A stretch of DNA of 64,000 bases. Origin: Spirosomataceae bacterium TFI 002. Its GTDB lineage: Bacteria > Bacteroidota > Bacteroidia > Cytophagales > Spirosomataceae. Below are positions 28,591 through 51,389 of this stretch, piece by piece. How positions within the stretch are numbered: position 1 is the first letter of the stretch; each line of letters begins with the position of its first letter. The stretch lies in assembly GCA_900230115.1 (NCBI GenBank), contig LT907983.1, positions 4,198,774-4,262,773 on the forward strand. Direction: 5' to 3'. The translations under genes and the position numbers were made by a program. The notes beneath the pieces were generated by a model that was given only the letters and a program-made list of their open reading frames with translations, had not been told where the DNA came from and made no database searches.

Positions 28591-29276
28591 TATTTCAATT
28601 TTTGAATTACAATCGGAGTGATTTTTTCTACCCAAGCGGTATACATATCTCCAGAAGGGTGCAAGCCATCACCTGCTACATAGTTAGGCTTGTTTGAGGC
28701 TTCACGTGATATAGGTGTGATATCTATATAGGTTACTCCTTTAGCTTTGCAAATTTCTTCGGAAGCAGCATTGTACTCATCAATTTCTAACGATATTTTC
28801 ATTGGGTTTCTAGATTGTGCGAAAGGCGTAACGCCATAATCTGGTATGGAAACCACGAAAACCTTGTCTTTGTTTCCTCCGGCGAATCCTATTGCACGAT
28901 CTAGTAAAGCACTGAATTCTGGTTTAAATTCTCCAACTGGTTTTCCTCTATATTGATTGTTTACTCCAATAAGTAATGAGACGATATCATATTCTTTTTC
29001 TAAGTTGGATCTGTCTATTGCAGCATTTAGTTCGTCGGTTGTCCAACCCGTTTTTGCAACAATAACAGGTTCATTGAGTTCAAAACCCCCATTGTTGAGT
29101 TTTTGAGCCAATTGTACTGGCCACCTAAGGTCTGTAGAAACACTTTCACCGATGGTGTAAGAGTCGCCCAGAGCGAGATAAGATATTTTGCTATTTGAAT
29201 TGTTGGGTATCACTTTCTTTTGACAAGATGTCAAAGCAAAGAACGCAAGAAGTATTGATAAGATTGAATATTTCAA
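28590..29276 (-). CDS. SGNH/GDSL hydrolase family lipoprotein
   Basis: Lipobox LTSC, a GDSYT block and a DGLHPS block. Confidence 0.75.
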   Translation of the reverse strand: MKYSILSILLAFFALTSCQKKVIPNNSNSKISYLALGDSYTIGESVSTDLRWPVQLAQKLNNGGFELNEPVIVAKTGWTTDELNAAIDRSNLEKEYDIVSLLIGVNNQYRGKPVGEFKPEFSALLDRAIGFAGGNKDKVFVVSIPDYGVTPFAQSRNPMKISLEIDEYNAASEEICKAKGVTYIDITPISREASNKPNYVAGDGLHPSGDMYTAWVEKITPIVIQKLK

Positions 29277-29473: not shown

Positions 29474-30553
29474 ATGAAAAACATAATCGGTATTTTATTC
29501 TTTTGCCCATTTCTATTAATGTCATGTGCTAAAAAAGAAAGTTTGAATTCATCCAAAATAAAAGAAAACTCATTCAAAGTACACCGAGGAACCAATATCG
29601 CACACTGGTTAAGCCAAAGTAAGAAAAGGGGAGAGGATAGAGCAATGTTTTTTACAGAAGCAGATGTTGCTTTCATTGATTCTGTTGGTTTTGATCATAT
29701 CCGAATGCCAGTTGACGAAGAGCAACTATGGGACCAAGGCGGTAACCGCAACGAAGAAGCATTTAAGCTATTAGATAATTTCCTCGGCTGGGCTCAAAAA
29801 TATGAATTGAAGGTAATTCTAGACTTACATAAACTGCGTTCGCACCATTTCAATGCAACAGAGAAGCCACTATGGGAAAAGCCAGAAGAACAGCAGAAGT
29901 TTATTAAGCTTTGGAAGGACTTGGCAAGTGCAGTGAATAAGTATCCTAACTCAATGTTGGCATACGAATTCATGAATGAACCTGTGGCGGATACTGCCGA
30001 AGAATGGAACAAACTACTTGGAATGGTCGCTGATTCTATTCGCTCATGGGAGCCAAAGCGAGTACTTGTTATTGGCTCAAATCGCTGGCAATCTGTTAAT
30101 ACATTTGATGAGTTAAGAGTGCCTGCAAATGATAAAAACATACTTCTGAGTTTTCATTTTTATGAGCCTTTCTACTTGAGCCATTACAGAGCTTCGTGGA
30201 CAAAAATGAAGGATTTTGCAGGTGAGGTAAATTACCCAGGGCAGATAGTAGTAAATGGTGTTACACAGGAAGAAAAACGAATTTACAATCGTGAATCGCT
30301 CGAGAAAATGATGGCAAAACCTATTCACTTGGCTGATAGTCTAGGACTGCCGCTGTATTGTGGGGAGTTTGGAATAATTGATGGCTCGCCAGAAAATGCC
30401 AAACTTGCTTGGTACAAAGACATGGTTGCAATTTTTGAAAAACACAAGATTGGCTATGCCAACTGGAACTACAAAGCTGGTTCGTTTGGTATTGTGGATA
30501 AGGATATGAAACCAAGAGGGGAGTATGTTGAAATTCTTACTAAGGAGAATTAA
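29474..30553 (+). CDS. Glycoside hydrolase family 5 (endoglucanase-like) lipoprotein
   Basis: Lipobox LLMSC. HRGTNIAHWLSQ...FDHIRMPV..., FMNEP (catalytic acid/base) and ...CGEFG (nucleophile Glu). Confidence 0.8.
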   Translation: MKNIIGILFFCPFLLMSCAKKESLNSSKIKENSFKVHRGTNIAHWLSQSKKRGEDRAMFFTEADVAFIDSVGFDHIRMPVDEEQLWDQGGNRNEEAFKLLDNFLGWAQKYELKVILDLHKLRSHHFNATEKPLWEKPEEQQKFIKLWKDLASAVNKYPNSMLAYEFMNEPVADTAEEWNKLLGMVADSIRSWEPKRVLVIGSNRWQSVNTFDELRVPANDKNILLSFHFYEPFYLSHYRASWTKMKDFAGEVNYPGQIVVNGVTQEEKRIYNRESLEKMMAKPIHLADSLGLPLYCGEFGIIDGSPENAKLAWYKDMVAIFEKHKIGYANWNYKAGSFGIVDKDMKPRGEYVEILTKEN

Positions 30554-36951: not shown

Positions 36952-37412
36952 TTTTCAGATTTTGTTTGTCTGTCACCGGTCTGCTGCGTTATACTTGCCA
37001 CTAACATTTAGGTAGACGTACTTGTCAATTAAATAATTATTTATGCTACCCATTAATTTTGCCCTAAAATAGCCTTTAATTCTCTTTAAAGGTGATTTTA
37101 TGAGTTTTTATTATCGGTTACTAACGGATAATATCGGTTAAGCTTCTTCAATAAAATGCCTTTCTTTTCCTCCTTCGCTTTTACTAGGAGAGTGAATTAG
37201 TGATTTCTAAGATCATCATTTTTAGTCCTTTGAATTTGTAGGTGAGTAGTGTGTCGGTTGTTTTGAGATGCTAGCACTCTATGTCAAAAGTATAAGTTTT
37301 TCTAAGCACACTATCACTCAAGATACCATCAAACTCATAAATAAACCCAACTAAACTTCCCCATCTAAATATTTTCTCTAGTTTTGTATACAGTATTCAA
37401 AATAAATAAATC

Positions 37413-38051
37413 TTGATAGCTCATAAAGACCTAAGTGTTCTAGCTTACGAAAAGCTCAAAGCAAATATTATCAGTGGCAAACTAGCTCCTGGAGAAAAGC
37501 TCGTGCAAGAGAAATTGGCGGCTGACCTAGGCGTAAGTAGAATGCCGCTGCACCGTGCTTTTCAAATGCTAGAATCGGAAATGCTTGTAGAAGCAAAACC
37601 TAGAAGAGGATTTTATGTCCGTAATGTTTCGCTCAATACTTTAATTGAAGCATTTGAATGTAGGGAAGTATTGGAAGGACTCGCTGTAAGGCGAATTGCT
37701 CAGGGTGATAAAGCCCTAGAAATTGGAGAAAAGCTTTGGAACAACTTTAAGAGTTTTGAAGGTCAAGAATCGATAGACGAAGACGCTTACCGTAAAGCTG
37801 ATCAAGTCTTTCACAATTCTTTGATGGATTATGCCGATAACGAGGTACTCAAAAGGTTGAATTCTTTTAGCCATTTCCTTAAGCAATCTTATGTTTTTGG
37901 GTTAGTTCGTGATGTCAAAGAAACTATAATAGAACACAAAGATATTTGCGAAGCAATCAAAAGAAAAGACGCTCGTGAGGCAGAAAGGCTAATAAGAGAG
38001 CATGCAAGTAAATCAATTGAAATAATAAAACAGAAAAATAAACAAGAATGA
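37413..38051 (+). CDS. GntR family transcriptional regulator (FadR/FCD-type C-terminal domain)
   Basis: YEKLKANIISGKLAPGEKLVQEKLAADLGVSRMPLHRAFQMLESEMLVEAKPRRGFYV winged-HTH. TTG start at 37413, so the start is uncertain. Confidence 0.8.
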   Translation: MIAHKDLSVLAYEKLKANIISGKLAPGEKLVQEKLAADLGVSRMPLHRAFQMLESEMLVEAKPRRGFYVRNVSLNTLIEAFECREVLEGLAVRRIAQGDKALEIGEKLWNNFKSFEGQESIDEDAYRKADQVFHNSLMDYADNEVLKRLNSFSHFLKQSYVFGLVRDVKETIIEHKDICEAIKRKDAREAERLIREHASKSIEIIKQKNKQE

Positions 38052-39100
38052 ATTCTCACAAAATTGCCATAGTGAATGGCGACGGAATCGGGCACGAAAT
38101 TGTACCCATGGCAGTAGAAGTAATGAAAAAAGCAGCTGAAAAGTTTGGCTTCAATTTAGAATTGGAGTCGTTTCCTTTTGGTGCTGGTTACTATGAGCAA
38201 CATGGAGATTTCATGACTGAAGATGGACTTGAGGTTTTAAAGAATTTCGATGCGATTCTTTTTGGAGCCGTTGGTTTACCCTCAGTTGATGATACACTGC
38301 CGTTCAAGCTTTTTACAAATAAAGTAAGGACAAATTTTGAGCAATACGTGAACTACCGTCCTGTGAAATTGCTAAGTGGAATTGATAGTCCATTGAGAAC
38401 AAAAACTCAAAAGGATATCGATTTTGTGGTGATAAGAGAAAACAACGAGGGTGAGTTCGTTCAGAATGGGCGTCAAATGTACCCTGATAAGCCTTATGGA
38501 TTTGCCACTGATACTAGTTTGTTTACTAGAGTTGGGATTGAGCGTATTGCTCATTATTCATTCCAATTGGCCCAAAAGAGAAGAAAAAATGTGATCAATG
38601 TGACGAAGTCAAATACGATGATCAATACATTGGCTTATTGGGATAGAGTAATTGCTGAGGTGGCTGATCAATACCCAGATGTAACTTATCGAAAAATGTA
38701 CATCGATGCTGCAACAGCGAACTTTGTGCTACATCCAGAGTATTTTGATGTGGTTTTAACTACAAACATGTTAGGTGATATTTTATCTGATTTGGGTGGT
38801 GCGATCATGGGAAGTTTAGGTTTTGGGCCATCTGGAAACTTGAACCCAACTGGCGAATTTCCAAACATGTACGAGCCTATTCATGGCTCTGCACCAGATA
38901 TTGCTGGCAAAGGAATTGCAAATCCAATTGGTCAGATTTGGTCTGCAGCAATCATGCTGGAACATTTAGGTGAGATTGAAGCTGCAAAAGCGATTGAAGC
39001 GGCAATAAATAAGACAACTGAACAAGGTATATTAACAGGTGATGCTGGCGGAAAAGCAAGTACGCAAGAGGTAGGAGCGGCTATCATCGCTAATCTGTAA
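38048..39100 (+). CDS. Tartrate dehydrogenase / D-malate dehydrogenase (decarboxylating) family enzyme (isocitrate/isopropylmalate DH fold)
   Basis: IAIVNGDGIGHEIVPMAVEVMKKAAEKFGF...FDAILFGAVG...NLNP...GSAPDIAGKGIANP. ATGA overlap with the GntR gene. Confidence 0.75.
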   Translation: MNSHKIAIVNGDGIGHEIVPMAVEVMKKAAEKFGFNLELESFPFGAGYYEQHGDFMTEDGLEVLKNFDAILFGAVGLPSVDDTLPFKLFTNKVRTNFEQYVNYRPVKLLSGIDSPLRTKTQKDIDFVVIRENNEGEFVQNGRQMYPDKPYGFATDTSLFTRVGIERIAHYSFQLAQKRRKNVINVTKSNTMINTLAYWDRVIAEVADQYPDVTYRKMYIDAATANFVLHPEYFDVVLTTNMLGDILSDLGGAIMGSLGFGPSGNLNPTGEFPNMYEPIHGSAPDIAGKGIANPIGQIWSAAIMLEHLGEIEAAKAIEAAINKTTEQGILTGDAGGKASTQEVGAAIIANL

Positions 39101-39106
39101 AATATT

Positions 39107-39745
39107 ATGAAAGTCATCGATCTTACAATGACCTATTCAGACAAGATTGCGGGTTTCTCTCGAAAAGAGGCCCGAAACTTGGAAAACGATGGGTGGAATG
39201 CAAGTGAGTTGACGATCTATTCCCATGCCGGAACTCACATGGATGCTCCTTTTCATTTCGGTGTAAGTGAAGAAACCATAGATAAGGTAGATCCAAAGAA
39301 ATATGTTGGAAGAGCTTGGTTAGTGGATCTGAGCTTTGTGAAAGAAAGCCAACTTTTGCAAGTAAATGACTTTCAACATATGGCATCGAAAATAGAAAAG
39401 GGAGATAGTCTTTTATTAAGAACTGATTGGCACAAAAGACTTGGAACTGACCAATACCGAAATGCCATGCCTCGGATTTCAGAAGAATTGGCAAATTGGA
39501 TGGTTGACAAAGGAGTAAATATGTTAGGTGTGGAGGCACTTTCAGTTGCCGATGTGAACAACCTACCCGAAGTAACCAAAATTCATGAAATATTGCTAGG
39601 TGGAGGAATCACAATAATAGAAGGCTTATGCAATCTAGAATTGATCAAAGAGGAAACTGTGACGCTCATTGCATTGCCAATAAAATTTGAAAATGGGGAC
39701 GGAGCTCCCGCACGAGTTATAGCAATTGAAAACATGCAGATTTAA
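39107..39745 (+). CDS. Cyclase-family protein (kynurenine-formamidase-like metal hydrolase)
   Basis: YSHAGTHMDAPFHF signature. Confidence 0.7.
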   Translation: MKVIDLTMTYSDKIAGFSRKEARNLENDGWNASELTIYSHAGTHMDAPFHFGVSEETIDKVDPKKYVGRAWLVDLSFVKESQLLQVNDFQHMASKIEKGDSLLLRTDWHKRLGTDQYRNAMPRISEELANWMVDKGVNMLGVEALSVADVNNLPEVTKIHEILLGGGITIIEGLCNLELIKEETVTLIALPIKFENGDGAPARVIAIENMQI

Positions 39746-39788
39746 AACTTGATTTTTTACGATTACCTGATTATAAGAAAGTATAACA

Positions 39789-41168
39789 TTGGATTCATTT
39801 ATTCAAACATACCTCGCTGACCATTTCGACTTTCACTTGAAAGCACGATCAGGCTCGTTATTGGATAAAATCAAAAGAAATGTATCCAAAAATCACATTT
39901 ACATCATTTTGGACGATGATCCCACTGGTACGCAGACAGTTCATGACATTGATGTTTACACTTCGTGGGATAATGAAACGCTAACTAGCCTTTTCAACTC
40001 TGGTGAGCAAATTGCTTTTATTTTAACCAATTCAAGAGCATTAACTGAACCCAAGGCGGTTTATATAGCGAGAGAAATTGGTAGGAAAATCAAAAGAATA
40101 GCAGCTAAAACAGGAAAGAGTTTTACAATTGTAAGTAGAGGAGATTCTACCTTGAGAGGACATTTTCCTGCAGAAGTTGATTGTCTATTAGAGGAGCTTG
40201 GTCAACCTGAAGCTATAAAAATGATTGTTCCTGCCTTCTTTCCTGGTGGTCGGTATACTTTTAATGATATCCATTATGTAAAAGAGGGTGAAACATTGAT
40301 TCCTGTTGCGGAAACGCCTTTTGCAAAAGATAAAAGTTTTGGGTTTTCTTCGTCCAATTTGAGAAACTGGGTCATTGAAAAGTATAAAGGTCAAATCGAA
40401 GAAAGTCAGGTTCACAGTATTTCTTTAGAGCAAATTCGAACATTGACTCTCAAGGAGCTAAGTTTTCACATAAATAAGTTGCCAAACGGGAGTTCGTGTA
40501 TCGTGAATGCTACAGAACAAACTGATTTAGAGCAGTTTGTTAAAGCGACTCAATTTGTTAGTCGTCAAGTATTTTTCAGGACTGCGGCATCACTTGTACC
40601 AATTTTGATAGGTCAAAAACAGAGTGACTTATTAAAGAAAAAGGATTTTCAATCCTCCGAAACAAATGGAAGTCTTATCGTTGTGGGTTCTTATGTGCCC
40701 AAAACGACAAGTCAGCTACGCTATTTGATGAAAAAATCTGATATCGAGACACTAGAAATAGATGTCAATCAGCTTTTTGGACGTAATACCAAAGTTTACC
40801 TTGATGCCAAAATTAACTACTGCTCCACTTTAATTGAGAAGGGTAGAGATGTAGTGATTTTCACGAGTAGGGATTTGAAATTTGGAGGCAATCAAAAAAG
40901 AAATTTAAAGATTGGGAAAACAATCTCTACTGCCTTGGTTTCAATTGTATCTGGCTTACAAGTTAAACCAAAAACAATCATTGCAAAAGGAGGCATCACC
41001 TCTAGTGACATTGCAACCAAAGCCCTAAAAATTAAAAAAGCCAGAGTTTTAGGGCAAATTCTTCCTGGTGTACCGGTTTTGCAATTTGGAGAAAATCAAA
41101 AATATATTGTTTTTCCTGGAAACGTAGGAGATGATACAGCATTATACCTAGCCTATAAAAAAATATGA
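39789..41168 (+). CDS. Four-carbon acid sugar kinase family protein (OtnK-like, DUF1537/DUF1357)
   Basis: N-terminal IILDDDPTGTQTV (DDxTG motif). C-terminal KGGITSSDIATKAL...VLGQILPGVPV. Confidence 0.7.
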   Translation: MDSFIQTYLADHFDFHLKARSGSLLDKIKRNVSKNHIYIILDDDPTGTQTVHDIDVYTSWDNETLTSLFNSGEQIAFILTNSRALTEPKAVYIAREIGRKIKRIAAKTGKSFTIVSRGDSTLRGHFPAEVDCLLEELGQPEAIKMIVPAFFPGGRYTFNDIHYVKEGETLIPVAETPFAKDKSFGFSSSNLRNWVIEKYKGQIEESQVHSISLEQIRTLTLKELSFHINKLPNGSSCIVNATEQTDLEQFVKATQFVSRQVFFRTAASLVPILIGQKQSDLLKKKDFQSSETNGSLIVVGSYVPKTTSQLRYLMKKSDIETLEIDVNQLFGRNTKVYLDAKINYCSTLIEKGRDVVIFTSRDLKFGGNQKRNLKIGKTISTALVSIVSGLQVKPKTIIAKGGITSSDIATKALKIKKARVLGQILPGVPVLQFGENQKYIVFPGNVGDDTALYLAYKKI

Positions 41169-42409
41169 AAAAGAGACATTTATTGGTAGTAACTACTTTT
41201 TCACTTACACTGCTCTTATACATTGACAGGGTATGTATTTCAGCAGCAAAAGGACCAATTTCTGATGCTCTTGGTTTAGATGATAAGCAATTTGGCTGGG
41301 TTTTATCTGCATTTGCTTTAGGTTATGCTTTGTTTCAGGCACCAAGTGGGAAGCTAGTGGACAAATACGGGCCAAGAATCGTCATCACTTCTATTGTAAC
41401 AATTTGGTCAGTTCTCACTGCGGTGACGGGTGCAGCATTCAGTTTTGTTAGTTTGCTTACAACAAGATTTTTGTTTGGAGTAGGGGAGGCGGGAGCCTTT
41501 CCGGGTATTGCTAAAAGTACTTATTCTTGGATTCCGCTTCAAGAGCGAGGTATTGTTACTGGAATCAATTTCTCTGGGTCTAGATTAGGTGCAGCATTCG
41601 CCATGCCTTTGATCACGTGGATGATCGCTACTTTCGATTGGCGAAATTCTTTTTATATTTTAGGTTTTGTTGGTGTTTTCTGGGCACTTGTTTGGTATTA
41701 TTGGTTTAGAGACAAGCCTGAAGAACACAGCTCCATATCAAGCACTGAACTCGACTATATCATTGCCAACAGGCAAGATAAAACGATAAAGAAGAAGGCA
41801 TTGATTCCATTTATGAGCCTGATTAAATCCAATAGTGTGTTGTTGGCTATGGGGCAATATTTTAGTAGTAATTATATCAACTTCTTTTGCTTATCATGGC
41901 TTTTCCCATATGTGAAAGAGCGATACGGTTTAAGCATGATGGATGCAGGCTTTCACACCATGTTTCCTTTACTTGCCGGAGCTTTTGGTAATTACTTTTC
42001 AGGTTACTTGGTTGACAAAATATATAACAAGGGCAATTGGAAGCTATCAAGAAGGGTTCCGGCTATAATAGGTTTTAGCTTGGTAATAGTTGGACTCATG
42101 ATTAGTCTCCAAATGGAATCGGTTCAAGGTGCAGTGATATTTCTTTCCTTGGCTGTTTTTGGTGCAGATATGACACTTAGTCCTAGCTGGTCTTACTGTG
42201 TTGATATTGGTAAAGAAAATGCCGGAGCAGTATCAGGAACAATGAACATGGCAGGAAATATTGGCTCGTTTCTCACAGCATTAGCGTTTCCTTATTTGGC
42301 AGATTGGACAGGAACAACCGATACGTTTTTCTATGTGGGTGCAATTTTGGCTCTGTTTGCAATTTTCTGTTGGTTGAAAATGAATCCTCAAAAAAGTTTA
42401 ACAGTATGA
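41165..42409 (+). CDS. MFS transporter (anion/acid-sugar type)
   Basis: Twelve TM helices. A 4-nt overlap with the upstream kinase gene. Confidence 0.8.
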   Translation: MKKRHLLVVTTFSLTLLLYIDRVCISAAKGPISDALGLDDKQFGWVLSAFALGYALFQAPSGKLVDKYGPRIVITSIVTIWSVLTAVTGAAFSFVSLLTTRFLFGVGEAGAFPGIAKSTYSWIPLQERGIVTGINFSGSRLGAAFAMPLITWMIATFDWRNSFYILGFVGVFWALVWYYWFRDKPEEHSSISSTELDYIIANRQDKTIKKKALIPFMSLIKSNSVLLAMGQYFSSNYINFFCLSWLFPYVKERYGLSMMDAGFHTMFPLLAGAFGNYFSGYLVDKIYNKGNWKLSRRVPAIIGFSLVIVGLMISLQMESVQGAVIFLSLAVFGADMTLSPSWSYCVDIGKENAGAVSGTMNMAGNIGSFLTALAFPYLADWTGTTDTFFYVGAILALFAIFCWLKMNPQKSLTV

Positions 42410-43407
42410 AATTGAGAGGAGTAGCAATAGGGGCGGGGTATTTCAGTGATTTTCATTTTGACGCTTGGCAAAGAATGCCAGGAGTTGAAATAATTGGCTT
42501 GTGTGATCAATATGAATCTAAAGCAAAGTCAAAAGCTTTGCAATATGGGATTCCAAACTATTTCACCAGCATTGAGAATATGCTTGAAATGGACGATATT
42601 GACTTTATTGATATCATTACTCCACCTGTCACGCACTACGAACTTGTTAAAAAAGCTGCGGATAAGGGGTTGGCTATAATTTGCCAAAAACCCATTGCTC
42701 CCGATGCAAATGAGGCTGTAGAAATGGTAAACTATGCGAAAAAGCTGAATGTGCCTTTAATGATACATGAGAATTTTCGTTTTCAGCCTTGGCACCGAGA
42801 AATTAAAAAGCTTTTGGATCAAAATCTAATCGGAGAGCTCAACAAGATTACCCACTTCTGCCGCATGGGAGATGGATGGGGTGATGATGCTTATTTAGCA
42901 AGGCAGCCATATTTTCAAGATTATAAGAGATTATTGATCTATGAAACGGGCATTCATTTCATAGATACGTACAGGTTTTTGGCAGGTGAATTCAAAGATG
43001 TATTTGCCAAACTGAGAAGACTCAACCCTGTTATCAAAGGAGAGGATAGTGGAATGATGGTTTTTGAAATGGAAAGTGGCGTGTGGATCACTTGCGATTT
43101 TTCAAGATTTAATGAATCTAATGCGGAAAATGCTCGCTACACTTTTGGTGAGTTTACTTTTGAAGGTTCCAAAGGCACCATAAGGTTATATCCAGATGGT
43201 AATATTACCATTCAGAAATTGGGTGCCAAAGAAACCAAACACAAGTACATGCACAATCAAATAGGCTTTGCAGGTGACTGTGTTTATGCTACTCAAAAGC
43301 ACTTCATAGATTCACTGATCAATAAAACACCATTTGAAACAAGCGGAGAGGATTACTTGAAAAGCTTATCAATTCAAGAAAGGATTTATGCCGCGTGTAG
43401 TATTTAA
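42406..43407 (+). CDS. Gfo/Idh/MocA family oxidoreductase
   Basis: Start at MKLRGVAIGAGYFSDFHFDAWQRM (ATGA overlap with the MFS stop). Rossmann fold plus a GFO_IDH_MocA C-terminal domain. Confidence 0.8.
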   Translation: MKLRGVAIGAGYFSDFHFDAWQRMPGVEIIGLCDQYESKAKSKALQYGIPNYFTSIENMLEMDDIDFIDIITPPVTHYELVKKAADKGLAIICQKPIAPDANEAVEMVNYAKKLNVPLMIHENFRFQPWHREIKKLLDQNLIGELNKITHFCRMGDGWGDDAYLARQPYFQDYKRLLIYETGIHFIDTYRFLAGEFKDVFAKLRRLNPVIKGEDSGMMVFEMESGVWITCDFSRFNESNAENARYTFGEFTFEGSKGTIRLYPDGNITIQKLGAKETKHKYMHNQIGFAGDCVYATQKHFIDSLINKTPFETSGEDYLKSLSIQERIYAACSI

Positions 43408-43415
43408 ACCATTTA

Positions 43416-43763
43416 TTAACAATTTCTACAGTGTTTAATATTTAAGATGTGCCCCAGCACCAAAACTAGGCTTGCGAAGTAGCTTAGGAGTTCAGCAAAC
43501 TCGAAAGTATCTTCTAGTATTATACAAAAGCTAAGTATTGCAAAACCTATCCAAACTAGTAGAAAGATATGGCGAGGAGGTTTAGACTTAGTTGCCTCCC
43601 AAGCTGCTGTAAAACTGACCAGTAAAAACAAATAACTAAGGTTTGCCCACCATTCGTATTTTATAACTAAGACAATCAAAAAAGGAGTCAATATGCAATG
43701 TACCACGCAGAGCGTGGCACTTGCAATTCCCAAATAATTGGAAAAATTGAAGAGATTTTTCAT
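43416..43763 (-). CDS. MerC-domain-like small membrane protein
   Basis: LGIASATLCVVHCILTPFLIVL resembles the MerC N-terminal Cys motif. Four TM helices. C-terminus HCRNC. Confidence 0.5.
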   Translation of the reverse strand: MKNLFNFSNYLGIASATLCVVHCILTPFLIVLVIKYEWWANLSYLFLLVSFTAAWEATKSKPPRHIFLLVWIGFAILSFCIILEDTFEFAELLSYFASLVLVLGHILNIKHCRNC

Positions 43764-43773
43764 ACTGTTAAAC

Positions 43774-44988
43774 TTAATGTATTTCGTTGCTTTCGTATCC
43801 CAATACCGTAATGCTATAAGGTCTATTTGAAACCTTAATTCGCTGTTGTATTGAAGGGTTCTTAATATTCACCATTAATACTTCACCAATTTTCGGTTGA
43901 GTGATGTACGCAAATTTACCGGATACAACCATTTGAGGTTTTTGTGTCTCATCTTTAGCCGTAGCGGCCAATAAAGCGGGATTTGATTTAATTATACCTC
44001 CTGTAAAAATATCTTTGTAAACCATGTCGCCCGAGTGGGATAGGATGGCAATGCGACTATAATCCATGCTTACTTTGGCTTGCATGATATCATTACTTTC
44101 GTGAATAGGTTTAATTTCATTTGTCGTGGTATTGATCAAATAAACTCCCTTTGAGGCTGTGTAGCCAAGAAAATTACCTTGTTTAGATGTTTCCATGATA
44201 GTCCCAAACCACGTTGTGCCAAAATCAGAAGGGTGCGGTATGAACTTTTGATTTCCGTTTTCTTCTACTACCAAAATACCACTAGCAGAGCCGAATACCG
44301 CTGAGTTACCGTCGGTTGCGTTACCGTGAATACCTTCAGTGGCTAATTTTGACTCGTGGATAGTTTTACCGCTTGAGTCGATGATTTTAACTCTTTCGGG
44401 TAGCGTGCCGGGTATACTATTGTCTTTCTCGGTGACAGCATAAGTGCCATTCATAAAATGAGCCATTGCACCATGATGTGCTTTAAGGTTGGCGTTTATT
44501 ACCTGCATTTTTATATCTGGAACGTGTATTTCACTTTCTTTTCCTATAGAAAGTGTACCGTCACCGTCATTGAATGTCAGGATTTCGCCTCTCTTACTTT
44601 TAAAATGGGTTGGTTTAGATGATTGCCCTTCCAATGCTCCAAACTTGGGTGTTCCTTTTACATCAACATGATCGCCATGATTTTCAAGGCCGATATCAAA
44701 GGTTTGCATCATGTCGTTGTCACGGTGGACAATTCCTGCAAATCGACTTGATTCTGTGGTGTAAAGTGCCGATTTTGGATACTGTGCTTGAAAACTTAAA
44801 ACTTCTTTAGAGAAAGGGTTCACAAGTGAAATGTCATTAGTTACTTCATCTGATACTAAAATTCGGATGTGTCGAAACTCTGCATTAGGGTCTTCTTCAG
44901 GATTAACATCTACCGAATTGTTTTCGCATGATGTGATTACAAATAAGGCTGAGGCAGCCAAGGCCAATGGTAAAATTCTTTTAAACAT
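43774..44988 (-). CDS. Hypothetical lipoprotein (possibly a beta-propeller)
   Basis: Lipobox ITSC followed by ENNSV. Gly/Asp-rich repeated strands. Confidence 0.5.
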   Translation of the reverse strand: MFKRILPLALAASALFVITSCENNSVDVNPEEDPNAEFRHIRILVSDEVTNDISLVNPFSKEVLSFQAQYPKSALYTTESSRFAGIVHRDNDMMQTFDIGLENHGDHVDVKGTPKFGALEGQSSKPTHFKSKRGEILTFNDGDGTLSIGKESEIHVPDIKMQVINANLKAHHGAMAHFMNGTYAVTEKDNSIPGTLPERVKIIDSSGKTIHESKLATEGIHGNATDGNSAVFGSASGILVVEENGNQKFIPHPSDFGTTWFGTIMETSKQGNFLGYTASKGVYLINTTTNEIKPIHESNDIMQAKVSMDYSRIAILSHSGDMVYKDIFTGGIIKSNPALLAATAKDETQKPQMVVSGKFAYITQPKIGEVLMVNIKNPSIQQRIKVSNRPYSITVLGYESNEIH

Positions 44989-45064: not shown

Positions 45065-45351
45065 TAAATAAGTTTTGGGTTGCAAAAAGTTAGGTAATCC
45101 CTACTATGAGGAATTCCATTTTGACAGGGATAAATAATACTTAACTCACTTCCTTTTTCTTAAACCCAGAGTTAATATTACCAGAATAAGTAGAAAAGCG
45201 ATGTTCAAACGATTAGATTATTGATTACTATTTGAAGATACGACAGTGATTTTTGATACTTAAAGAAGTGGATCTGTCTCGCTTAAAAGTTTTTAAATAC
45301 TCGGTTTTGAACGATTATTGTTCTAAATTTCGTCTTAATTCAACCCATTCA

Positions 45352-46266
45352 ATGACTTCACGAAGAACATTTATCAAGCAATCTAGCTTAGGACTGGCTG
45401 CTTTAACTTTTCCATTTTCTAAAACCAAGTCTGTTGCTCCGCTTTGTTATTTTACAAAAGAAATGCAGTGGGCAAGTTATGATGAGGTAGGAATGATGCT
45501 GAACGAACTTGGTTTTGATGGGGCAGACTTATCCCTTAGAAAAAGAGGTAGCATAGAGCCTGAAAATGCAGCTAAAGAATTACCAAAATTCGTTTCAGCA
45601 CTTAATCGCCATGGTATAAGTGTGCCTATGATGGCAAGCGATATTGGAGGCGTAGGTTATCCAAATATTGAGGAATTCTTGAAGATTATCAGCGACAATG
45701 GGATCAAGTATTACCGCATGGCATACCTCAAGTATGATTTCAAAAAGTCTATAGAAGCAAATATTGAAATTTTCCATGCTGGCTTTCAAAAACTAGCAGC
45801 CTTGAATGCCAAATATGGTCTTGCAGCATCTTACCAAAATCATGCTGGCACTAGCCTAGGAGCGAGTGTATGGGATGTGGTTTATTCATTGAAAGGTATA
45901 GATAAAAAGCAAGTAGGGGCACAGTTCGATATCAGGCATGCAGTGGTAGAAGGAGGAGAATCTTGGCCTGTGGATTTTGCAGCCATAAAGTCCCATATCA
46001 ATACCATAGTAACAAAAGATTTTTATTGGGCAAAGAACGAAGCAGGTAAATGGAAAGTGAAAAATGTGCCTCTGGGAGAAGGAATGGTTGATTTTGATGC
46101 CTATTTCAAACTATACAAAGAAGCAGGTTTGGATGTTCCTATGACAAACCATACTGAATACCCAATTTTCAATGAAGAGCAAGAACACCTTTCGAATAAG
46201 GAGAAAATGAAGATTATTCTTCCAGTTATCAGGAAAGACCTTAATGTAATAAAGAAATACTTGTGA
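45352..46266 (+). CDS. Sugar phosphate isomerase/epimerase (xylose-isomerase-like TIM barrel) with a Tat signal
   Basis: MTSRRTFIKQSSLGLAALTF twin-arginine signal. Acidic and His residues typical of a TIM barrel. Confidence 0.65.
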   Translation: MTSRRTFIKQSSLGLAALTFPFSKTKSVAPLCYFTKEMQWASYDEVGMMLNELGFDGADLSLRKRGSIEPENAAKELPKFVSALNRHGISVPMMASDIGGVGYPNIEEFLKIISDNGIKYYRMAYLKYDFKKSIEANIEIFHAGFQKLAALNAKYGLAASYQNHAGTSLGASVWDVVYSLKGIDKKQVGAQFDIRHAVVEGGESWPVDFAAIKSHINTIVTKDFYWAKNEAGKWKVKNVPLGEGMVDFDAYFKLYKEAGLDVPMTNHTEYPIFNEEQEHLSNKEKMKIILPVIRKDLNVIKKYL

Positions 46267-46742: not shown

Positions 46743-47699
46743 TTATTCAAAAACCTCAATACTGTTAAGTTCTGGTCCTCCACCTCTATTTTGTGAACCT
46801 GCTGCAGTATAAATCTTTCCGTTTATAACTCCTGCACCAGTACCGTGTCTTCCCATATTGAGTTTTGGCATGCTTGTCCATTTCATTGTTTTAGGATCGA
46901 AAGCCTCAACTTCACTGTGAGCAGGCAACTGACCACCACTTTCACCACCTAAAATCACCACTTTGTTATTGAAAACAACTGCGGAAGAACCTGCACGCAT
47001 AGTTGGGATATGACCTTCCATTTCTGCAGATTTCCATTTGTTGGTGGCAAAGTCAAAAACGTCAACATTTGATTCTGTTAGTGACATAACTTCGTTTGTT
47101 TTTGCCCTTGACCTTCTTCCTCCAGCGACTACGAGCTGAGTGCCAATGGTTGCAACCCCAACATGGTCTCTCGCACGAGGTGCGTCGGGTAATTGAGCCC
47201 ACCTTCCAGTAGCTGGGTCCAAGCTATCAAACCAAGTTACATGGCCATTCCAATGTCCGTCTACAATGCCACATACCAGGTATATTTTGTCATTGTAAAC
47301 AAAACATCCAGCTCCACCTCTTTTGCGAGGAATCTCTGGCCCTTTTCGCCATTCATTTTTCTTTGGATTGAAAATATAAACATGGGGGATTGGAGTTTCA
47401 TGGGGATATCTTCCTGTCAAAGCTCCAATCACATAAAGCTCATCTTTATAAGCGATGGCCTGAAAATGGTGCATTTCGAGTGGTGTTTCTGCCAATTGCT
47501 CCCATGTGTTGGTTTTTGTATGAAAAACTTCAACAGGCTTTATTCCTCTTCCACCGATGACATAAAAGTCGTCGCCAAGAGCAACCGCTGAGTTTTCGTG
47601 ACGAACAGTAGGGTTTCCTTTTGCTTCAATTGTTTTCCAATTTTGTGCAATTGAAACTGGTGCCGAAATAAGGATAAATACTAATACTAAATATTTCAT
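46743..47699 (-). CDS. Kelch-repeat beta-propeller protein, secreted
   Basis: Signal peptide. Repeated ...YVIGG.....W...P...R..... Confidence 0.75.
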   Translation of the reverse strand: MKYLVLVFILISAPVSIAQNWKTIEAKGNPTVRHENSAVALGDDFYVIGGRGIKPVEVFHTKTNTWEQLAETPLEMHHFQAIAYKDELYVIGALTGRYPHETPIPHVYIFNPKKNEWRKGPEIPRKRGGAGCFVYNDKIYLVCGIVDGHWNGHVTWFDSLDPATGRWAQLPDAPRARDHVGVATIGTQLVVAGGRRSRAKTNEVMSLTESNVDVFDFATNKWKSAEMEGHIPTMRAGSSAVVFNNKVVILGGESGGQLPAHSEVEAFDPKTMKWTSMPKLNMGRHGTGAGVINGKIYTAAGSQNRGGGPELNSIEVFE

Positions 47700-47702
47700 T
47701 TT

Positions 47703-49130
47703 TTATAATGGTTGAAGTTTGTAAACGATACCTGGCTTTTCTACAGAAACGTAGATAAATCCATCTTGACCTTGAATAATATTTCTTGTGCGGCCAATAT
47801 TCAGAAGTACCTTTTCCTCTTTTACGATTTTATTATTTTTCATAACGCAACGATTAACATAATTGAACCGAAGCGAACCTGCTAGTAAGTCACTTTTCCA
47901 GCCTGGATATTTATCGCCTGTTACAAAAGTAAGTCCAGATGGAGCAATAGAAGGTAACCAATAGATTTGCGGTTGTTCCATGCCTTTTTTCTCGGTCAGT
48001 GTTGTGAAAGTTGTACCGTCGTAGTTTATTCCATAAGAAATAACTGGCCAGCCAAAGTTCTTGCCTTTTTCAATGATATTGACCTCATCTCCTCCTCTAG
48101 GGCCATGCTCAGTTTCCCATAGTTGGTTGGTCGTAGGGTTTAGAGCTAAACCCTGAGGATTCCTGTGTCCATAACTCCATATCGTCTTCATAGCTCCATT
48201 CTGCTTATAAAACGGATTATCTGTTGGAATGCTGCCATCGTCATTAATACGGTGGATTTTACCGCACTGACTTGCTAAACTCTGAGGGTTTTCGTCTCTA
48301 TTTCCTCTGTCTCCAACAGAAATAAATAGGTATCCTTCTCTGTTAAATTCCAACCTAGATCCATAATGATGCCTAGTTTTGGAATACGGAAGTGCTTCAA
48401 AAACCTCTTTGGAATTTACCCAATTTCCGTTTTCTATTTGGCCTCTTATTACTGCTGTTGTACTAAGCTTCTCGCCATCTTCTTCTTTGGATTTGGAGTA
48501 AGAAATATATACGAATCCGTTGGAGGCGTATTTGGGATGAAGTTTTAAATCAAGCATTCCACCTTGTCCTTCGGAAAGGGCCTCTGGAAGTCCTTTGATT
48601 TTTATTTTGTTGCCATCAGTATTCACTTGTAATAAGTCACCACTTCTATCGGTAACGAATATTTTTCCATCAGGCAAAACGGCCATACCCCATGGTACAT
48701 CAATACCTTCAACTACTGGAACAAGTTTTATTGTCATACCATCTACGGTATACACTTCTTGTTTTTTTACGTCTTTGAAATCATATTGTGTCACTGTACC
48801 GAGGCTCTGAACAATTAAATCGGCCATGGCATCAATTTCTCCTTTAGTTAATGCGGCTGACCAAGTTGGCATTCCCTCGTCTACATAACCATTTGTAATG
48901 CTAGCAATGATTTCGGGTTTTGTGTTGCCATGTTTCCATTTTCTGTCTACAAAGGCTTCTACTTTTTGTCCATGACAACCGGAGCATAGTTCGGTATATA
49001 TTTCTGATGGATCGCGTTCTTTGCTAGCCAAAAGGTCGCTGCTGGCAGTGGCTACTTGCTTGTTTTGGACGCAGTTCGTTATTAGAAAAGTGCTTCCTAT
49101 TAAGCCTAATAAGATTGATATTATTTTCAT
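47703..49130 (-). CDS. PQQ-dependent sugar (glucose/sorbosone) dehydrogenase with an N-terminal cytochrome-c domain
   Basis: CSGCHGQK (CxxCH) followed by Met ligand context. GDH-B-like: MAVLPDGKIFVTDRSGDL...GGMLDLKLHP...GHRNPQGLA. Confidence 0.8.
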   Translation of the reverse strand: MKIISILLGLIGSTFLITNCVQNKQVATASSDLLASKERDPSEIYTELCSGCHGQKVEAFVDRKWKHGNTKPEIIASITNGYVDEGMPTWSAALTKGEIDAMADLIVQSLGTVTQYDFKDVKKQEVYTVDGMTIKLVPVVEGIDVPWGMAVLPDGKIFVTDRSGDLLQVNTDGNKIKIKGLPEALSEGQGGMLDLKLHPKYASNGFVYISYSKSKEEDGEKLSTTAVIRGQIENGNWVNSKEVFEALPYSKTRHHYGSRLEFNREGYLFISVGDRGNRDENPQSLASQCGKIHRINDDGSIPTDNPFYKQNGAMKTIWSYGHRNPQGLALNPTTNQLWETEHGPRGGDEVNIIEKGKNFGWPVISYGINYDGTTFTTLTEKKGMEQPQIYWLPSIAPSGLTFVTGDKYPGWKSDLLAGSLRFNYVNRCVMKNNKIVKEEKVLLNIGRTRNIIQGQDGFIYVSVEKPGIVYKLQPL

Positions 49131-49244: not shown

Positions 49245-51389
49245 TTACTTTTTCATTGCAGCAACTTCAGCTTCGAGCTTTTCAATTCGCTCATTAGCTT
49301 GTATGATGTACAATGTTAATTCTTCAATTTTTTCCATTTGCTTTGCAGCAATTTCTGCCATATCAATTCCGTTTTCGGCTACTTCCTGTGCAGATGGCAC
49401 ATTTGGTAGGTGCTTGTATTCTTCAATGAACTTAGCAACATCCTTTATTGGCATTAATTTATAACTTCTGTCGAAAACGTAGTCAGCCCATTTATCGGAG
49501 TTTGCAACTGCAACTCTAACTCTCTCGGCTAGTATACCATTTTTAACATAAAGGTTAAAACCATCTGGAAGCTTAGTGATACCTGCTCCAATTACAACTT
49601 TCTCGTTGTTTTGAGTTACGATAGTTCCGTTTTGGGTTTTCCAAAAACCATCTGTTACCGTAGTTCCACCAGACCCTGAAGGGGCACTTGTAAGGATAAC
49701 ATAACCTTCTGAATTGACAGATAAGGCTTTACCATTGGAGGGTTGTGGATTTGAATTTGCATTGATTGTCATGAATTTTATTCCATAGTCAGCTACACCT
49801 AGTCCTCTAGTGAAAACAGCAGAGGTAAAGAGTGTTTCTTCCACATCTAGGTTTCCTTGAATCCTTACTTTTCTATCAGTATTGGTAACTCTATCTTCAG
49901 AGTCAAGGGACCAAAATCCACTATCTCCTCCACCAGTTGTTGTTCCAGAAGTACCTATTTTATCGTTAACTAAGATTACTTTTCCTTCACTATCGACACT
50001 TAAAACTTTTCCGTTTGAAATTGTAGAAGGGGAGTTGCTATTGAAATTACTGAATTTCAATCCGTTCGAAATATTTACCAATCCTACATTGTTATTTGAG
50101 ATATCACCGCCTGATACATTCCAAGTTATTTGGCTAGTTCCTGTAGGGGTGCTACTTATAGGGGCATTTACAAGCGTTACTTTTCCGTTTGCATCAAGAC
50201 TTAAGAACTTACCTGTTGCACTTCCTAGTCCACTTAATGTAAGGCCGCCATTCTCAACAAACATAGCATTAGACCTTAATATTCCACCAATGGTAGCATC
50301 TCTATTGATCAATACATTTCCTGAGTTATTATTGACAAGGTCGTTTCCGTTCAGTTGCCAGTTTGAAGCACTTTTGGGTTCATAATAATCATTTACCAAA
50401 ACTACTTCTCCCGAACTATTAAGAGCGAGAACTTTTCTATTTCCATTTGTAGCAGGAGAATTGCTGTTCAGTTTTTCAAAACTCAATCCACTTGTGTTAA
50501 GCTTTCCGCTATTGATTGTAAAGGCACTAGTAAGTGAAGTTGTATTGATACCAACTCTTGCAGCATCAAAATCTCCATATATAAGGGAAGCCTTACCAGC
50601 GTCATTACTGATATGTAGTTTATTGTTTGATGATTCGAAGTAACCTGCTTGGAAACCCAAGAATACGTTTCCTTTTCCAGTTGACTTGTATCCCGCGAGT
50701 GAACCCAATGCAGTATTCTTTTCACTACCGCCATTTGCGGCCAAGGCACCACTACCGATAGCTACGTTGTGATCACCATTATCATTATTAAATAATGTTT
50801 GATACCCTATTGCTACGTTGTTTCCGCCAGTATTTGCCTTTTGCATGGCTAAAGCTCCAACTATTACAGAGTTATAACCCTTGCTAAGAAATCCAGCTTT
50901 ATAACCAAAAGAACTCATTCCTCTACGGTAATCTATTGTTCCCGAAGCGAAGTTGTTTACTTTGAACTGAATAGAAGTTGTATCCGTAGTTCCTATAAAG
51001 TGTTCTGAACTATTAAGCCCAGAATTTCCGGCGGTACCCCAAGTTGTTGCATCGTTCGCTTCAAGATTCGCTCCTGCGTTACTTCCTGATACTAGAGACC
51101 ACTTATTTGAATTATATACGTATAATCCACTTAGCATGTTGGTTTGAAAAACCATTAGGCCTTGAGCTGGACTTAGAATATTTGCCCTTTCTGTAAGGGT
51201 CATTCTAGGTAAAAGTAGCCCTTTCGACTTAGAAGAAAGATCTAAGATGGCTGATTGATCCGGTTGTGTTGTACCTATACCGACTCCGCCCTCGCTTTCT
51301 TTTTTTGTTTGACCAAAAACTGTACTTGCTGAAACTGAAGTTAATATTAGGATAAGCCGGAGATACTTAATTGTGTTAAGTGTTCTCAT
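49245..51389 (-). CDS. Secreted tail-fibre-like repeat protein with a C-terminal peptidase-S74 (endosialidase intramolecular chaperone) domain
   Basis: Signal peptide. Gly/Asn-rich repeats (GNNVAIGYQTLFNNDNGDHNVAIGSGALAANGG...). C-terminus ...NSDKWADYVFD...LMPIKDV...HLPNVPSAQEVAENGIDMAEIAAKQMEKIEELTLYIIQANERIEKLEAEVAAMKK matches the S74 chaperone plus coiled coil. Confidence 0.65.
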   Translation of the reverse strand: MRTLNTIKYLRLILILTSVSASTVFGQTKKESEGGVGIGTTQPDQSAILDLSSKSKGLLLPRMTLTERANILSPAQGLMVFQTNMLSGLYVYNSNKWSLVSGSNAGANLEANDATTWGTAGNSGLNSSEHFIGTTDTTSIQFKVNNFASGTIDYRRGMSSFGYKAGFLSKGYNSVIVGALAMQKANTGGNNVAIGYQTLFNNDNGDHNVAIGSGALAANGGSEKNTALGSLAGYKSTGKGNVFLGFQAGYFESSNNKLHISNDAGKASLIYGDFDAARVGINTTSLTSAFTINSGKLNTSGLSFEKLNSNSPATNGNRKVLALNSSGEVVLVNDYYEPKSASNWQLNGNDLVNNNSGNVLINRDATIGGILRSNAMFVENGGLTLSGLGSATGKFLSLDANGKVTLVNAPISSTPTGTSQITWNVSGGDISNNNVGLVNISNGLKFSNFNSNSPSTISNGKVLSVDSEGKVILVNDKIGTSGTTTGGGDSGFWSLDSEDRVTNTDRKVRIQGNLDVEETLFTSAVFTRGLGVADYGIKFMTINANSNPQPSNGKALSVNSEGYVILTSAPSGSGGTTVTDGFWKTQNGTIVTQNNEKVVIGAGITKLPDGFNLYVKNGILAERVRVAVANSDKWADYVFDRSYKLMPIKDVAKFIEEYKHLPNVPSAQEVAENGIDMAEIAAKQMEKIEELTLYIIQANERIEKLEAEVAAMKK

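Follow-up and report, generated by a model that had tools for sequence, protein, structure and literature searches.

A conserved gene cassette around a DUF1537-family kinase in Spirosomataceae bacterium TFI 002 and its possible role in branched-sugar catabolism

We describe a six-gene operon (positions 37413-43407) in a 64,000-nucleotide stretch of contig LT907983.1 from Spirosomataceae bacterium TFI 002, hereafter the window, whose enzyme and transporter genes form a conserved cassette, present in glycan degraders from at least four phyla. The system belongs to the acid-sugar catabolic clusters organized around a DUF1537-family kinase, but its set of partners is new and includes a mechanistically unusual enzyme of the Iso_dh family in which phenylalanine has replaced the catalytic tyrosine. 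The route that the system encodes appears undescribed. With confidence that falls somewhat short of even, we read the operon as a self-contained cytoplasmic module for the catabolism of a small anionic, glycan-derived sugar or sugar acid, most likely an apiose-like branched compound (D-apiose-derived or carboxyl-branched). By analogy with known systems, the best leads would be a front end of aldose 1-dehydrogenase and lactonase like that of the oxidative D-apiose pathway, together with a glycan source.

Operon structure and conservation of the cassette

The open-reading frame (ORF) list and a Pfam scan place six co-directional genes at 37413-43407, encoding a GntR/FCD regulator, an Iso_dh-family enzyme, a cyclase-family hydrolase, a DUF1537 kinase, a major facilitator superfamily (MFS) permease and a Gfo/Idh/MocA oxidoreductase. 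These features, and a candidate operator upstream of them, are as follows:

37385-37392, strand not applicable: palindrome TGTATACA, candidate GntR operator, 20 nt upstream of the GntR TTG start
37413-38051, + strand: GntR-family regulator with FCD effector domain (PF00392 3.6e-19, PF07729 4.5e-15)
38048-39100, + strand: Iso_dh-family enzyme of the tartrate-dehydrogenase lineage (PF00180 7e-95)
39107-39745, + strand: cyclase-family metal-dependent hydrolase, proposed lactonase (PF04199 2.7e-30)
39789-41168, + strand: DUF1537 (four-carbon acid sugar kinase family) kinase (PF07005 8.8e-47, PF17042 9.1e-36)
41165-42409, + strand: MFS permease of the anion:cation symporter type (PF07690 1.2e-61)
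42406-43407, + strand: Gfo/Idh/MocA oxidoreductase, proposed sugar 1-dehydrogenase (PF01408, PF22725, PF02894)

An initial annotation of this DNA, made from the letters and their reading frames, had proposed a tight six-gene operon behind a GntR/FCD regulator, and the ORF list, the Pfam domains and the gene overlaps bear it out; its family labels likewise agree with Pfam domains at strong E-values. Direct reading of the sequence finds the ATGA start/stop overlaps at 38048, 41165 and 42406 where they had been placed, and the other intergenic gaps measure 6 nt and 43 nt, with a convergent gene beginning at 43416. The start of the Gfo/Idh/MocA gene is set at the ATG at 42406, which is backed by homologue alignments, the mechanical ORF start being a TTG at 42304. 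A scan of the operon for promoters and terminators returned nothing exceeding shuffle expectation: no convincing internal terminator was found, and the hairpin matches were weak and near what shuffled sequence yields. The G+C content of the operon (38.5 %) is close to that of the window (37.8 %). The six genes are one real operon.

About 40 loci, from Bacteroidota, Verrucomicrobiota, Planctomycetota and KSB1, share the five-gene core (Iso_dh, cyclase, kinase, MFS and Gfo), in the same order in Bacteroidota and in permuted order in Verrucomicrobiota and Planctomycetota (PVC) loci. Clustering of ORFs identifies the full cassette in 35 of 84 analysed loci (designated by L numbers below), to which tblastn adds L036 and L046; within this set the cassette occurs in Bacteroidota (Flavobacteriia, Cytophagia, Chitinophagia, Saprospiria and Bacteroidia), Verrucomicrobiota and Planctomycetota, and three more cassette loci lie on a Chondrinema litorale plasmid and in Dyadobacter jejuensis and Nibrella. 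Kinase homologues at 45-61 % identity are accompanied by the same gene set in two metagenomic Bacteroidota contigs, in Zobellia, in Rhodopirellula (with permuted order) and in a KSB1 metagenome-assembled genome (MAG), and the kinase-homologue neighbourhoods also include an Opitutales MAG that has a TRAP system instead of the MFS gene and no Gfo gene nearby. The kinase subfamily as such is larger: scanning one genome per species for the motifs DDDPTGTQ and [SG]DSTLRGH[YF] finds relatives carrying both in at least 597 species.

Several further genes accompany the cassette. Sixteen loci encode a secreted protein of about 620 amino acids with an N-terminal DUF5060 domain, usually adjacent and co-directional, and this glycosidase-like gene of clan GH-A stands directly beside the cassette in at least 14 loci of three phyla. 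The predicted structure of the DUF5060 protein is most similar to BVU_0362 (a DUF5060 protein) and to a GH140 apiosidase; the source genome holds one DUF5060 homologue, P0489, which lies outside the window and is 61 % identical to the cassette-linked protein of Dyadobacter. A VOC protein resembling methylmalonyl-CoA epimerase is found in 14 loci, between the Gfo and kinase genes in those of PVC bacteria, a small GH115_C-like protein lies near the cassette in nine, and a GH5-like protein is also a recurrent neighbour. Sulfatase neighbours, present in 13 loci, were judged uninformative; the phyla concerned are generally rich in sulfatases.

OtnI, OtnC, PdxA2 and RuBisCO-like proteins are absent from the window operon and from the approximately 40 orthologous cassettes, which extends to these loci the lack of OtnI, OtnC and PdxA2 partners that had been noted for the operon. 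The proposal of a variant or undescribed acid-sugar route stands, given that the canonical partners are absent and the kinase scores far under the curated cut-offs. Full-text literature searches found no description of the cassette, and the names that RefSeq and the source genome give to its genes are generic or misleading.

Enzymes and transporter of the cassette

The Iso_dh enzyme is 47.6 % identical over its full length to the tartrate dehydrogenase (TDH, TtuC) of Pseudomonas putida (PDB 3flk) and keeps the arginine triad (R94, R104, R130), the catalytic lysine (K187), the three metal-binding aspartates (D220, D244, D248) and the NAD-site motif HGSAPDIAG. It departs from TDH at the catalytic tyrosine, which is replaced by Phe137 (codon 38456-38458; RENNEGEF against RENTEGEY in TDH), and around the 'RR' pair of TDH, whose second arginine is threonine in the cassette enzymes and whose two preceding leucines are polar or aromatic. 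Set against the beta-decarboxylating (R)-hydroxyacid dehydrogenases as a class (isocitrate, isopropylmalate and homoisocitrate dehydrogenases, IDH, IPMDH and HICDH, and TDH), the arginine triad, the three metal aspartates and the NAD site are in place, but of the Lys-Tyr catalytic pair only K187 is kept. The enzyme also scores below the TDH equivalog cut-offs, just so for TIGR02089 (456.0 bits, cut-off 470.4) and at 405.4 bits for NF006048 (cut-off 501), and the genomic context of the cassette is unrelated to that of ttu operons. The label of TtuC-like dehydrogenase in the initial annotation masks the loss of the tyrosine; the source genome's own 'tartrate dehydrogenase' is an automatic name.

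Phenylalanine occupies the catalytic tyrosine position in all 37 cassette-linked Iso_dh proteins, which fall into two lineages sharing 36-40 % identity. The first is TDH-like, carries 'EGEF' and is found in Bacteroidota, Sedimentisphaerales and KSB1; the second carries 'EGLF', is found in Verrucomicrobiota and other Planctomycetota, and has homoisocitrate and isopropylmalate dehydrogenases as its best curated models. Each lineage is nearer to tyrosine-bearing relatives (45-48 % identity for the first, 43-48 % for the second) than to the other, so that the Tyr-to-Phe change looks, on these identities, independent in the two and tied to the same pathway slot. The wider family was surveyed through the best 150 cluster representatives at 50 % identity; the motif was readable in 122 of these, with tyrosine in 113, phenylalanine in eight and methionine in one. 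Representatives P0151, P0200, P0223 and P0249 are other bearers of phenylalanine, and P0190 has the methionine.

In enzymes of the Iso_dh fold the catalytic tyrosine protonates C3 of the enolate after decarboxylation, and its loss cripples ordinary oxidative decarboxylation; the Lys-Tyr pair was reportedly treated by Aktas and Cook in 2009, and a Y160F form of Escherichia coli IDH is said to have been studied by Lee et al. in 1995. Loss of the tyrosine is compatible with oxidation without decarboxylation or with another fate of the enediolate. Because Phe137 has taken the place of the tyrosine, the ordinary oxidative decarboxylation of tartrate or D-malate is an unlikely activity for the enzyme of this operon.

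The kinase carries both DUF1537 domains at full length (PF07005 and PF17042), so that the earlier description of it as OtnK-like holds at the level of the family but does not extend to the equivalog: it scores 49.7 bits against the OtnK model NF043035 (cut-off 350) and 93.1 bits against the DtnK model NF047819 (cut-off 450), the nearest curated kinase model. A PDB search returned 4xfm as the sole match (E = 1e-6) and did not match the family members 1yzy, 3dqq and 5dmh, unlike the kinase of the rhizobial apionate cluster described below, which matches 5dmh, 1yzy and 3dqq; a member of the window kinase subfamily from a transketolase context had no PDB match. A long separate branch parts the window kinase from the apionate-cluster kinase in the tree, and no closeness to OiaK was found. 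The low DtnK and OtnK scores, the single weak PDB match and the distance to the apionate-cluster kinase indicate that, as far as homology can tell, the window kinase is a third, deep and structurally unsampled DUF1537 branch, and not an OtnK, DtnK or OiaK. The initial annotation had held that firm clustering of the kinase within a characterised isofunctional subgroup, or its closest homologues standing with the usual partners, would speak against a new route; scores this far under the cut-offs place it in no such subgroup, but relatives at 40-45 % identity do have other partners, which touches that caveat in part.

These relatives adjoin genes for class II fructose-1,6-bisphosphate (FBP) aldolase-like, 3-hydroxyisobutyrate-dehydrogenase-like (HIBDH-like) and xylose-isomerase-like TIM-barrel proteins or split transketolase genes, in contexts that also include ABC or TRAP transporters and Asp/Glu-racemase genes. 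A neighbour-joining tree does not separate the kinases of the cassette from relatives in other gene contexts but places the two among each other. An arrangement of HIBDH-like gene, kinase and class II FBP-aldolase-like gene occurs in L070, L031, L034, L048 and L072, and its HIBDH-like proteins match the model of tartronate-semialdehyde reductase better than that of L-threonate dehydrogenase, neither cut-off being passed. Non-cassette loci of the subfamily (L015-L088) come from Chloroflexota, Desulfobacterota, Acidobacteriota, Armatimonadota and Bacillota, including Staphylococcus gallinarum; they also carry PanB genes, their transporters are of ABC, TRAP or GntP-like type, and from their gene content they look like several more pathways without assignment. 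The PanB-like genes were considered as sources of hydroxymethyl-removing enzymes and rejected, since they pass the cut-off of the genuine PanB equivalog and their adjacency to the kinases may be incidental.

The cyclase-family hydrolase has the HxGTHxDxxxH motif and the distal His and Glu metal ligands of PF04199 metallohydrolases, and its binuclear-metal site is complete: the ligands H40, H44, D46, H50, H160 and E172 do not vary among 36 cassette orthologues, and neither do G42 and T43 of the motif. Its gene always adjoins the Iso_dh gene in the cassettes, and all orthologues whose surroundings were examined (53-78 % identity, four phyla) have the Iso_dh and kinase genes of the cassette flanking them. 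The source genome names the protein 'Kynurenine formamidase', and kynurenine formamidases are its best PDB matches (1.6e-18); it reaches 87.9 bits against the arylformamidase model TIGR03035 (cut-off 223), and its best 120 homologues, at 53 % identity or more, bear generic names or none. A kynureninase-like gene (Aminotran_5 and KYNU_C domains; 27319-28635, - strand) lies about 10 kb upstream of the operon and could reinforce the misleading automatic name. Activities of the cyclase family include those of amidases, a lactamase, isatin hydrolases and a phosphotriesterase (PMC12135135), and we infer that the cassette member is a lactonase.

The best solved relative of the Gfo/Idh/MocA enzyme is 5uhw (1.7e-40 over the full length), with all other PDB matches at 3e-18 or weaker, and its score against myo-inositol 2-dehydrogenase IolG (TIGR04380) is 113.4 bits, under a cut-off of 355. 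Orthologues of 5uhw (84-93 % identity) reside on rhizobial replicons. In Sinorhizobium sp. B11 the orthologue belongs to a cluster (L089) to which the source names assign a DUF1537 kinase, a 275-aa PGDH_C 'D-apionate oxidoisomerase', a ribose-type ABC transporter and a 619-aa 'D-apionate lactonase', and its gene adjoins that of the lactonase. The window enzyme is 33 % identical to this orthologue (1e-56), and 38 of the 64 residues that are invariant among cassette Gfo enzymes are shared with it. An identity of 5uhw as the D-apionate oxidoisomerase (ApnO) was considered and rejected, as the source names give ApnO to the 275-aa PGDH_C protein, and the schemes based on it were dropped. On the same Sinorhizobium plasmid (CP091033.1, 2019281-2050000; L089 and L091) some 9 kb separate the D-apiose/D-apionate cluster from a gene whose product combines DUF5060, Apiosidase (PF13204) and DUF5605 domains. 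This gene has its own sugar ABC transporter, and the two are likely to constitute an apioside-uptake and hydrolysis unit linked to the pathway.

The MFS permease is matched best, by a wide margin, by TIGR00893 (D-galactonate transporter subfamily), with 267 bits against a cut-off of 395. Its cassette-linked orthologue on the Chondrinema litorale plasmid (55 % identity) bears the generic name 'MFS transporter'; no other plasmid-borne transporter is more than 36 % identical to the window permease, and none of those listed has a specific name. In L007 the permease is replaced by a TRAP DctPQM system. An anion:cation symporter type of MFS permease and the use of TRAP in L007 would point to an anionic substrate.

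A proposed pathway and its alternatives

The structure of the operon, the conservation of the cassette, the family memberships, the intact catalytic metal sites, the Tyr-to-Phe change and the absence of the known partner enzymes are observations. What substrate is used, that the cyclase acts as a lactonase, how the Iso_dh enzyme works and the order in which lactone opening, phosphorylation and Iso_dh oxidation follow one another are put forward here as a proposal. The GntR/FCD repressor would bind the TGTATACA palindrome and let go in the presence of the acid or of an intermediate of the pathway, and the anion-type MFS permease would bring the compound into the cell. The Gfo/Idh/MocA enzyme would then oxidise the anomeric carbon (C1) to give a lactone, and the cyclase-family Zn/Mn hydrolase would open this lactone, yielding a (2R)-2-hydroxy acid whose C3 is fully substituted. 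The DUF1537 kinase would phosphorylate the terminal hydroxymethyl group and the Tyr-less Iso_dh would oxidise the (2R)-hydroxyl with NAD+; without a general acid to protonate C3, the resulting 2-oxo/enediolate species would not be trapped as the usual 2-oxo acid, and may instead rearrange or tautomerise to a beta-keto acid that loses CO2 to yield a ketose phosphate, at the level of dihydroxyacetone phosphate (DHAP) or erythrulose phosphate. The VOC protein of PVC loci would fit an enediol isomerase or epimerase step.

The closest counterpart to this scheme would be the oxidative breakdown of D-apiose and D-apionate, for which Carter et al. in 2018 reportedly described pathways of dehydrogenase, lactonase, oxidoisomerase and DUF1537 kinase followed by loss of CO2. 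The four cassette enzymes may be mapped by analogy one-to-one on the upper part of that pathway, only the first enzyme being homologous between the systems. Compared with the L089 cluster the logic is the same (Gfo dehydrogenase, lactonase, NAD-dependent oxidation of a 2-hydroxy acid, DUF1537 kinase and CO2 loss), the Gfo enzymes are homologous, and a DUF5060-type glycosidase is nearby in both. The components nevertheless differ: the lactonase candidate of the cassette belongs to the cyclase family and not to that of the 619-aa 'D-apionate lactonase', the PGDH_C-type 'D-apionate oxidoisomerase' and a RuBisCO-like OiaX/OiaC/OiaT enzyme are missing, the kinase is of a different and very distant DUF1537 subfamily, uptake is by anion-type MFS or TRAP instead of ribose-type ABC transport, and the Tyr-less Iso_dh is an addition.

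Several observations weigh against an apiose-like substrate and the enzyme roles proposed for it. An identity of 33 % to the apiose-cluster dehydrogenase does not, at this distance, allow the substrate to be transferred, and that enzyme is itself only probably the D-apiose 1-dehydrogenase: neither it nor the window enzyme bears a curated name, and the role falls to it by elimination, because the other cluster proteins are named as oxidoisomerase and lactonase. The window kinase is very distant from the apionate-cluster kinase (L089:2325-3659; 25 % identity over 140 aa, E = 2e-4), anion-type MFS and TRAP transporters do not fit neutral D-apiose, and we know of no lactonase in the cyclase family. 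The modules are also separable, as L043 and L079 have Gfo and kinase without Iso_dh and cyclase, and L007 has Iso_dh, cyclase and kinase without Gfo. Aceric acid, the sole named natural candidate among carboxy-branched sugars, was attractive in that a 2-hydroxy-3-carboxy acid would result from the oxidation of a 3-C-carboxy aldose. Two features led to its being set aside: it is 5-deoxy, and hence offers no primary hydroxyl to the kinase, and its C2 has the L configuration, which is wrong for the Iso_dh enzyme family.

A fuller version of the branched-sugar reading, which we regard as possible though doubtful, would make the cassette an undescribed pathway for a branched sugar or sugar acid of plant or algal glycans, fed by a glycosidase family without assigned specificity. 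Its substrate would be D-apiose, for which this would be a fourth oxidative route, or else a carboxy-branched sugar resembling aceric acid. In it the Iso_dh would have lost its tyrosine twice, independently, in favour of new chemistry, namely oxidation coupled to rearrangement or a redirected tautomerisation of the enediolate.

Among the alternatives, a variant tetronate pathway fares best, and we consider it unlikely. L-threonate, D-erythronate or their 1,4-lactones would be imported as anions, the cyclase would open the lactone, and the Iso_dh, the Gfo enzyme or both would oxidise C2 or C3 in place of LtnD/DenD and OtnI; the DUF1537 protein would serve as 2-oxo- or 3-oxo-tetronate kinase, and the phospho-keto acid would decarboxylate to DHAP, the Tyr-less Iso_dh or the VOC protein replacing OtnC or 2OtnC. 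The anion transporters fit this proposal, a non-decarboxylating oxidation at the (2R)-hydroxyl would explain the loss of the tyrosine, and cassette and non-cassette kinases are intermixed in the tree. The characterised DUF1537 kinases named in PMC12994016 and PMC10971088 all act on C4 acid sugars or close analogues, and the loci with HIBDH-like gene, kinase (a 40-45 % relative) and class II aldolase-like gene resemble the three-step 2-oxo-tetronate route (PMC12994016), although the HIBDH-like proteins of these loci lean towards tartronate-semialdehyde reductase over L-threonate dehydrogenase and pass neither cut-off. A C4 aldonic acid, however, has no anomeric carbon and fits poorly with secreted glycosidase-like neighbours and a Gfo enzyme related to aldose dehydrogenases, and the retention of all three carboxylate-binding arginines in the Iso_dh suggests a dicarboxylate or phospho-acid substrate.

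The known tetronate routes show both likeness and difference. The cassette has in common with L-threonate and D-erythronate catabolism, whether by four steps (LtnD/DenD-OtnI-OtnK-OtnC) or three (Ltn2D-2OtnK-2OtnC), the logic of a DUF1537 kinase acting on an oxidised acid sugar and a decarboxylation to triose phosphate, as well as a probably anionic substrate, and distant relatives of its kinase stand in an HIBDH-like/kinase/class II aldolase-like arrangement; but it lacks an HIBDH-type dehydrogenase, an OtnI-type isomerase, a PF00596 OtnC and a class II FBP-aldolase-type decarboxylase, and its kinase reaches 50 of the 350 bits asked for OtnK. The D-threonate system (DtnK and PdxA2) is like it in pairing a kinase, of the nearest curated model, with a metal- and NAD-dependent beta-hydroxyacid dehydrogenase, and PdxA2 and Iso_dh share the isocitrate-dehydrogenase-like fold; it differs in that DtnK would require 450 bits where the cassette kinase has 93, the cassette dehydrogenase is a PF00180 Iso_dh and not a PdxA2, and the Gfo and cyclase enzymes are extra. 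Nothing tested points specifically to any of the substrates that the initial annotation had suggested (threonate, erythronate or a tartrate-like compound).

Use of a tartrate-type dicarboxylate, as in the ttu operon of Agrobacterium vitis, is more improbable still. The MFS permease would import a tartrate isomer or analogue, the TDH-like enzyme would oxidise it to oxaloglycolate, with no decarboxylation and hence no need of the tyrosine, and oxaloglycolate would decarboxylate to hydroxypyruvate or tartronate semialdehyde, which the Gfo enzyme would reduce to D-glycerate for the DUF1537 kinase to make phosphoglycerate. TDH oxidises (+)-tartrate without decarboxylation, the Iso_dh comes near to it (47.6 % identity; 456 bits against a cut-off of 470) with its carboxylate-, metal- and NAD-site motifs all kept, the MFS family type is shared with acid-sugar and dicarboxylate carriers, and the regulator is an FCD-type carboxylate sensor. 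Yet the same slot is held in Verrucomicrobiota and Planctomycetota by an Iso_dh lineage that is not TDH-like, the 'tartrate dehydrogenase' of the source genome is an automatic name, the cyclase is left without a role, the linked glycosidase-like, GH115_C-like and GH5-like genes go unexplained, and to our knowledge DUF1537 proteins have no glycerate kinase activity.

A reading of the cyclase as a true kynurenine formamidase, serving tryptophan catabolism amid a chance mixture of genes, deserves almost no credence, for although its name in the source genome, its best PDB matches and the kynureninase-like gene some 10 kb off (27319-28635, - strand) would suit this, its score stays at 88 of 223 bits for the arylformamidase equivalog, its gene overlaps or abuts its operon neighbours, and its 53-78 % orthologues keep the same Iso_dh and kinase genes at their side in four phyla.

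In marine, freshwater, soil and plant-associated habitats the main phyla of glycan degraders widely carry the cassette, and the names that its genes now bear ('tartrate dehydrogenase', 'kynurenine formamidase') mislead. Its assignment would fill a gap in our picture of how rare plant and algal cell-wall sugars are mineralised and correct hundreds or more database entries, and a function for a large DUF1537 subfamily without a close solved structure would follow. For the isocitrate-dehydrogenase superfamily, the same Tyr-to-Phe change in two lineages and in the same slot is a natural experiment that bears on the Lys-Tyr mechanism. The system is also compact and testable, with four soluble enzymes and one regulator with its candidate operator, and some species have a TRAP binding protein that suits ligand screening.

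Regulator, candidate operator and neighbouring genes

The regulator combines an N-terminal winged-helix GntR domain (PF00392) with a C-terminal FCD domain (PF07729), as proteins of the FadR/FCD subfamily of the GntR family do, and reaches the cut-off of no NCBIfam equivalog. An orthologue immediately precedes the cassette in L001, L003, L044, L050, L064, L071 and L093 and is divergent from it in L008 and L016; in the cassettes of other lineages a LacI-family regulator takes its place.

The palindrome that the initial annotation had offered as operator is present, one base away from the position given (37385-37392 instead of 37384-37391). Its count is not beyond chance: TGTATACA occurs twice in the window, where 1.2 occurrences would be expected, and two are reached in 34 of 100 shuffles. 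Phylogenetic footprinting, however, lends support to the guess: the core TTGTATACAA is kept upstream of orthologous GntR genes in four further loci (L044, L050, L064 and L071), in which the TGTATACA core is embedded in the longer palindrome TTGTATTTTGTATACAAAATACAA. Because the core recurs upstream of orthologous regulators inside a longer palindrome, a role of TGTATACA as the GntR operator is plausible, and we retain the site as a candidate.

The cassettes of Zobellia (L004, around 6100-6270; L019, around 8050-8210) have neither a GntR gene nor a TGTATACA site and carry a repeated TTGCGCAAA(T/C)ATTGCGCAA element of their own upstream of Iso_dh, which suggests, from the sequences compared, that regulator and operator were swapped together. 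In Z. uliginosa (L019) the cassette is immediately preceded by a gene of the LacI family, and none was detected within the Z. roscoffensis locus (L004).

Downstream of the operon, and convergent with its end, the window encodes a small predicted membrane protein (43416-43763, - strand), followed by a lipoprotein (43774-44988, - strand) that weakly resembles the zinc metallochaperone AztD (99 bits, cut-off 400) and by a xylose-isomerase-like TIM-barrel protein (45253-46266, + strand), outside the operon and probably periplasmic, in which SRRTFIK looks like a twin-arginine signal. Beside the cassette, four loci of Cytophagia and Flavobacteriia (the window, L036 9809-10783, L052 11028-11999 and L092 6248-7594) encode a secreted six-bladed Kelch beta-propeller protein (46743-47699, - strand, in the window; 44-49 % identity). 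The window protein passes the Pfam cut-off for NANM, N-acetylneuraminate epimerase (62 bits, cut-off 45), stays far under the NCBIfam mutarotase cut-offs, and might be a mutarotase-like helper for the sugar of the pathway.

Three nucleotides upstream of the Kelch gene, a glucose/sorbosone dehydrogenase (GSDH) of the pyrroloquinoline quinone type is fused to a cytochrome c domain (47703-49130, - strand), preceded by a gene for a 714-aa protein with no Pfam match (49245-51389, - strand); Nibrella (L094) likewise has a GSDH gene after its cassette. Periplasmic oxidation of an aldose by GSDH to feed the anion transporter is conceivable and was set aside as too rare, GSDH being found near the cassette only in the window and L094. 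On the other side, about 7 kb upstream of the operon, lies a gene of the GH5 (cellulase) family (29474-30553, + strand; 6.6e-36), and at the window edge a single ORF of 3962 amino acids (50-11938, + strand) is followed on the same strand by ORFs of 981 and 649 amino acids.

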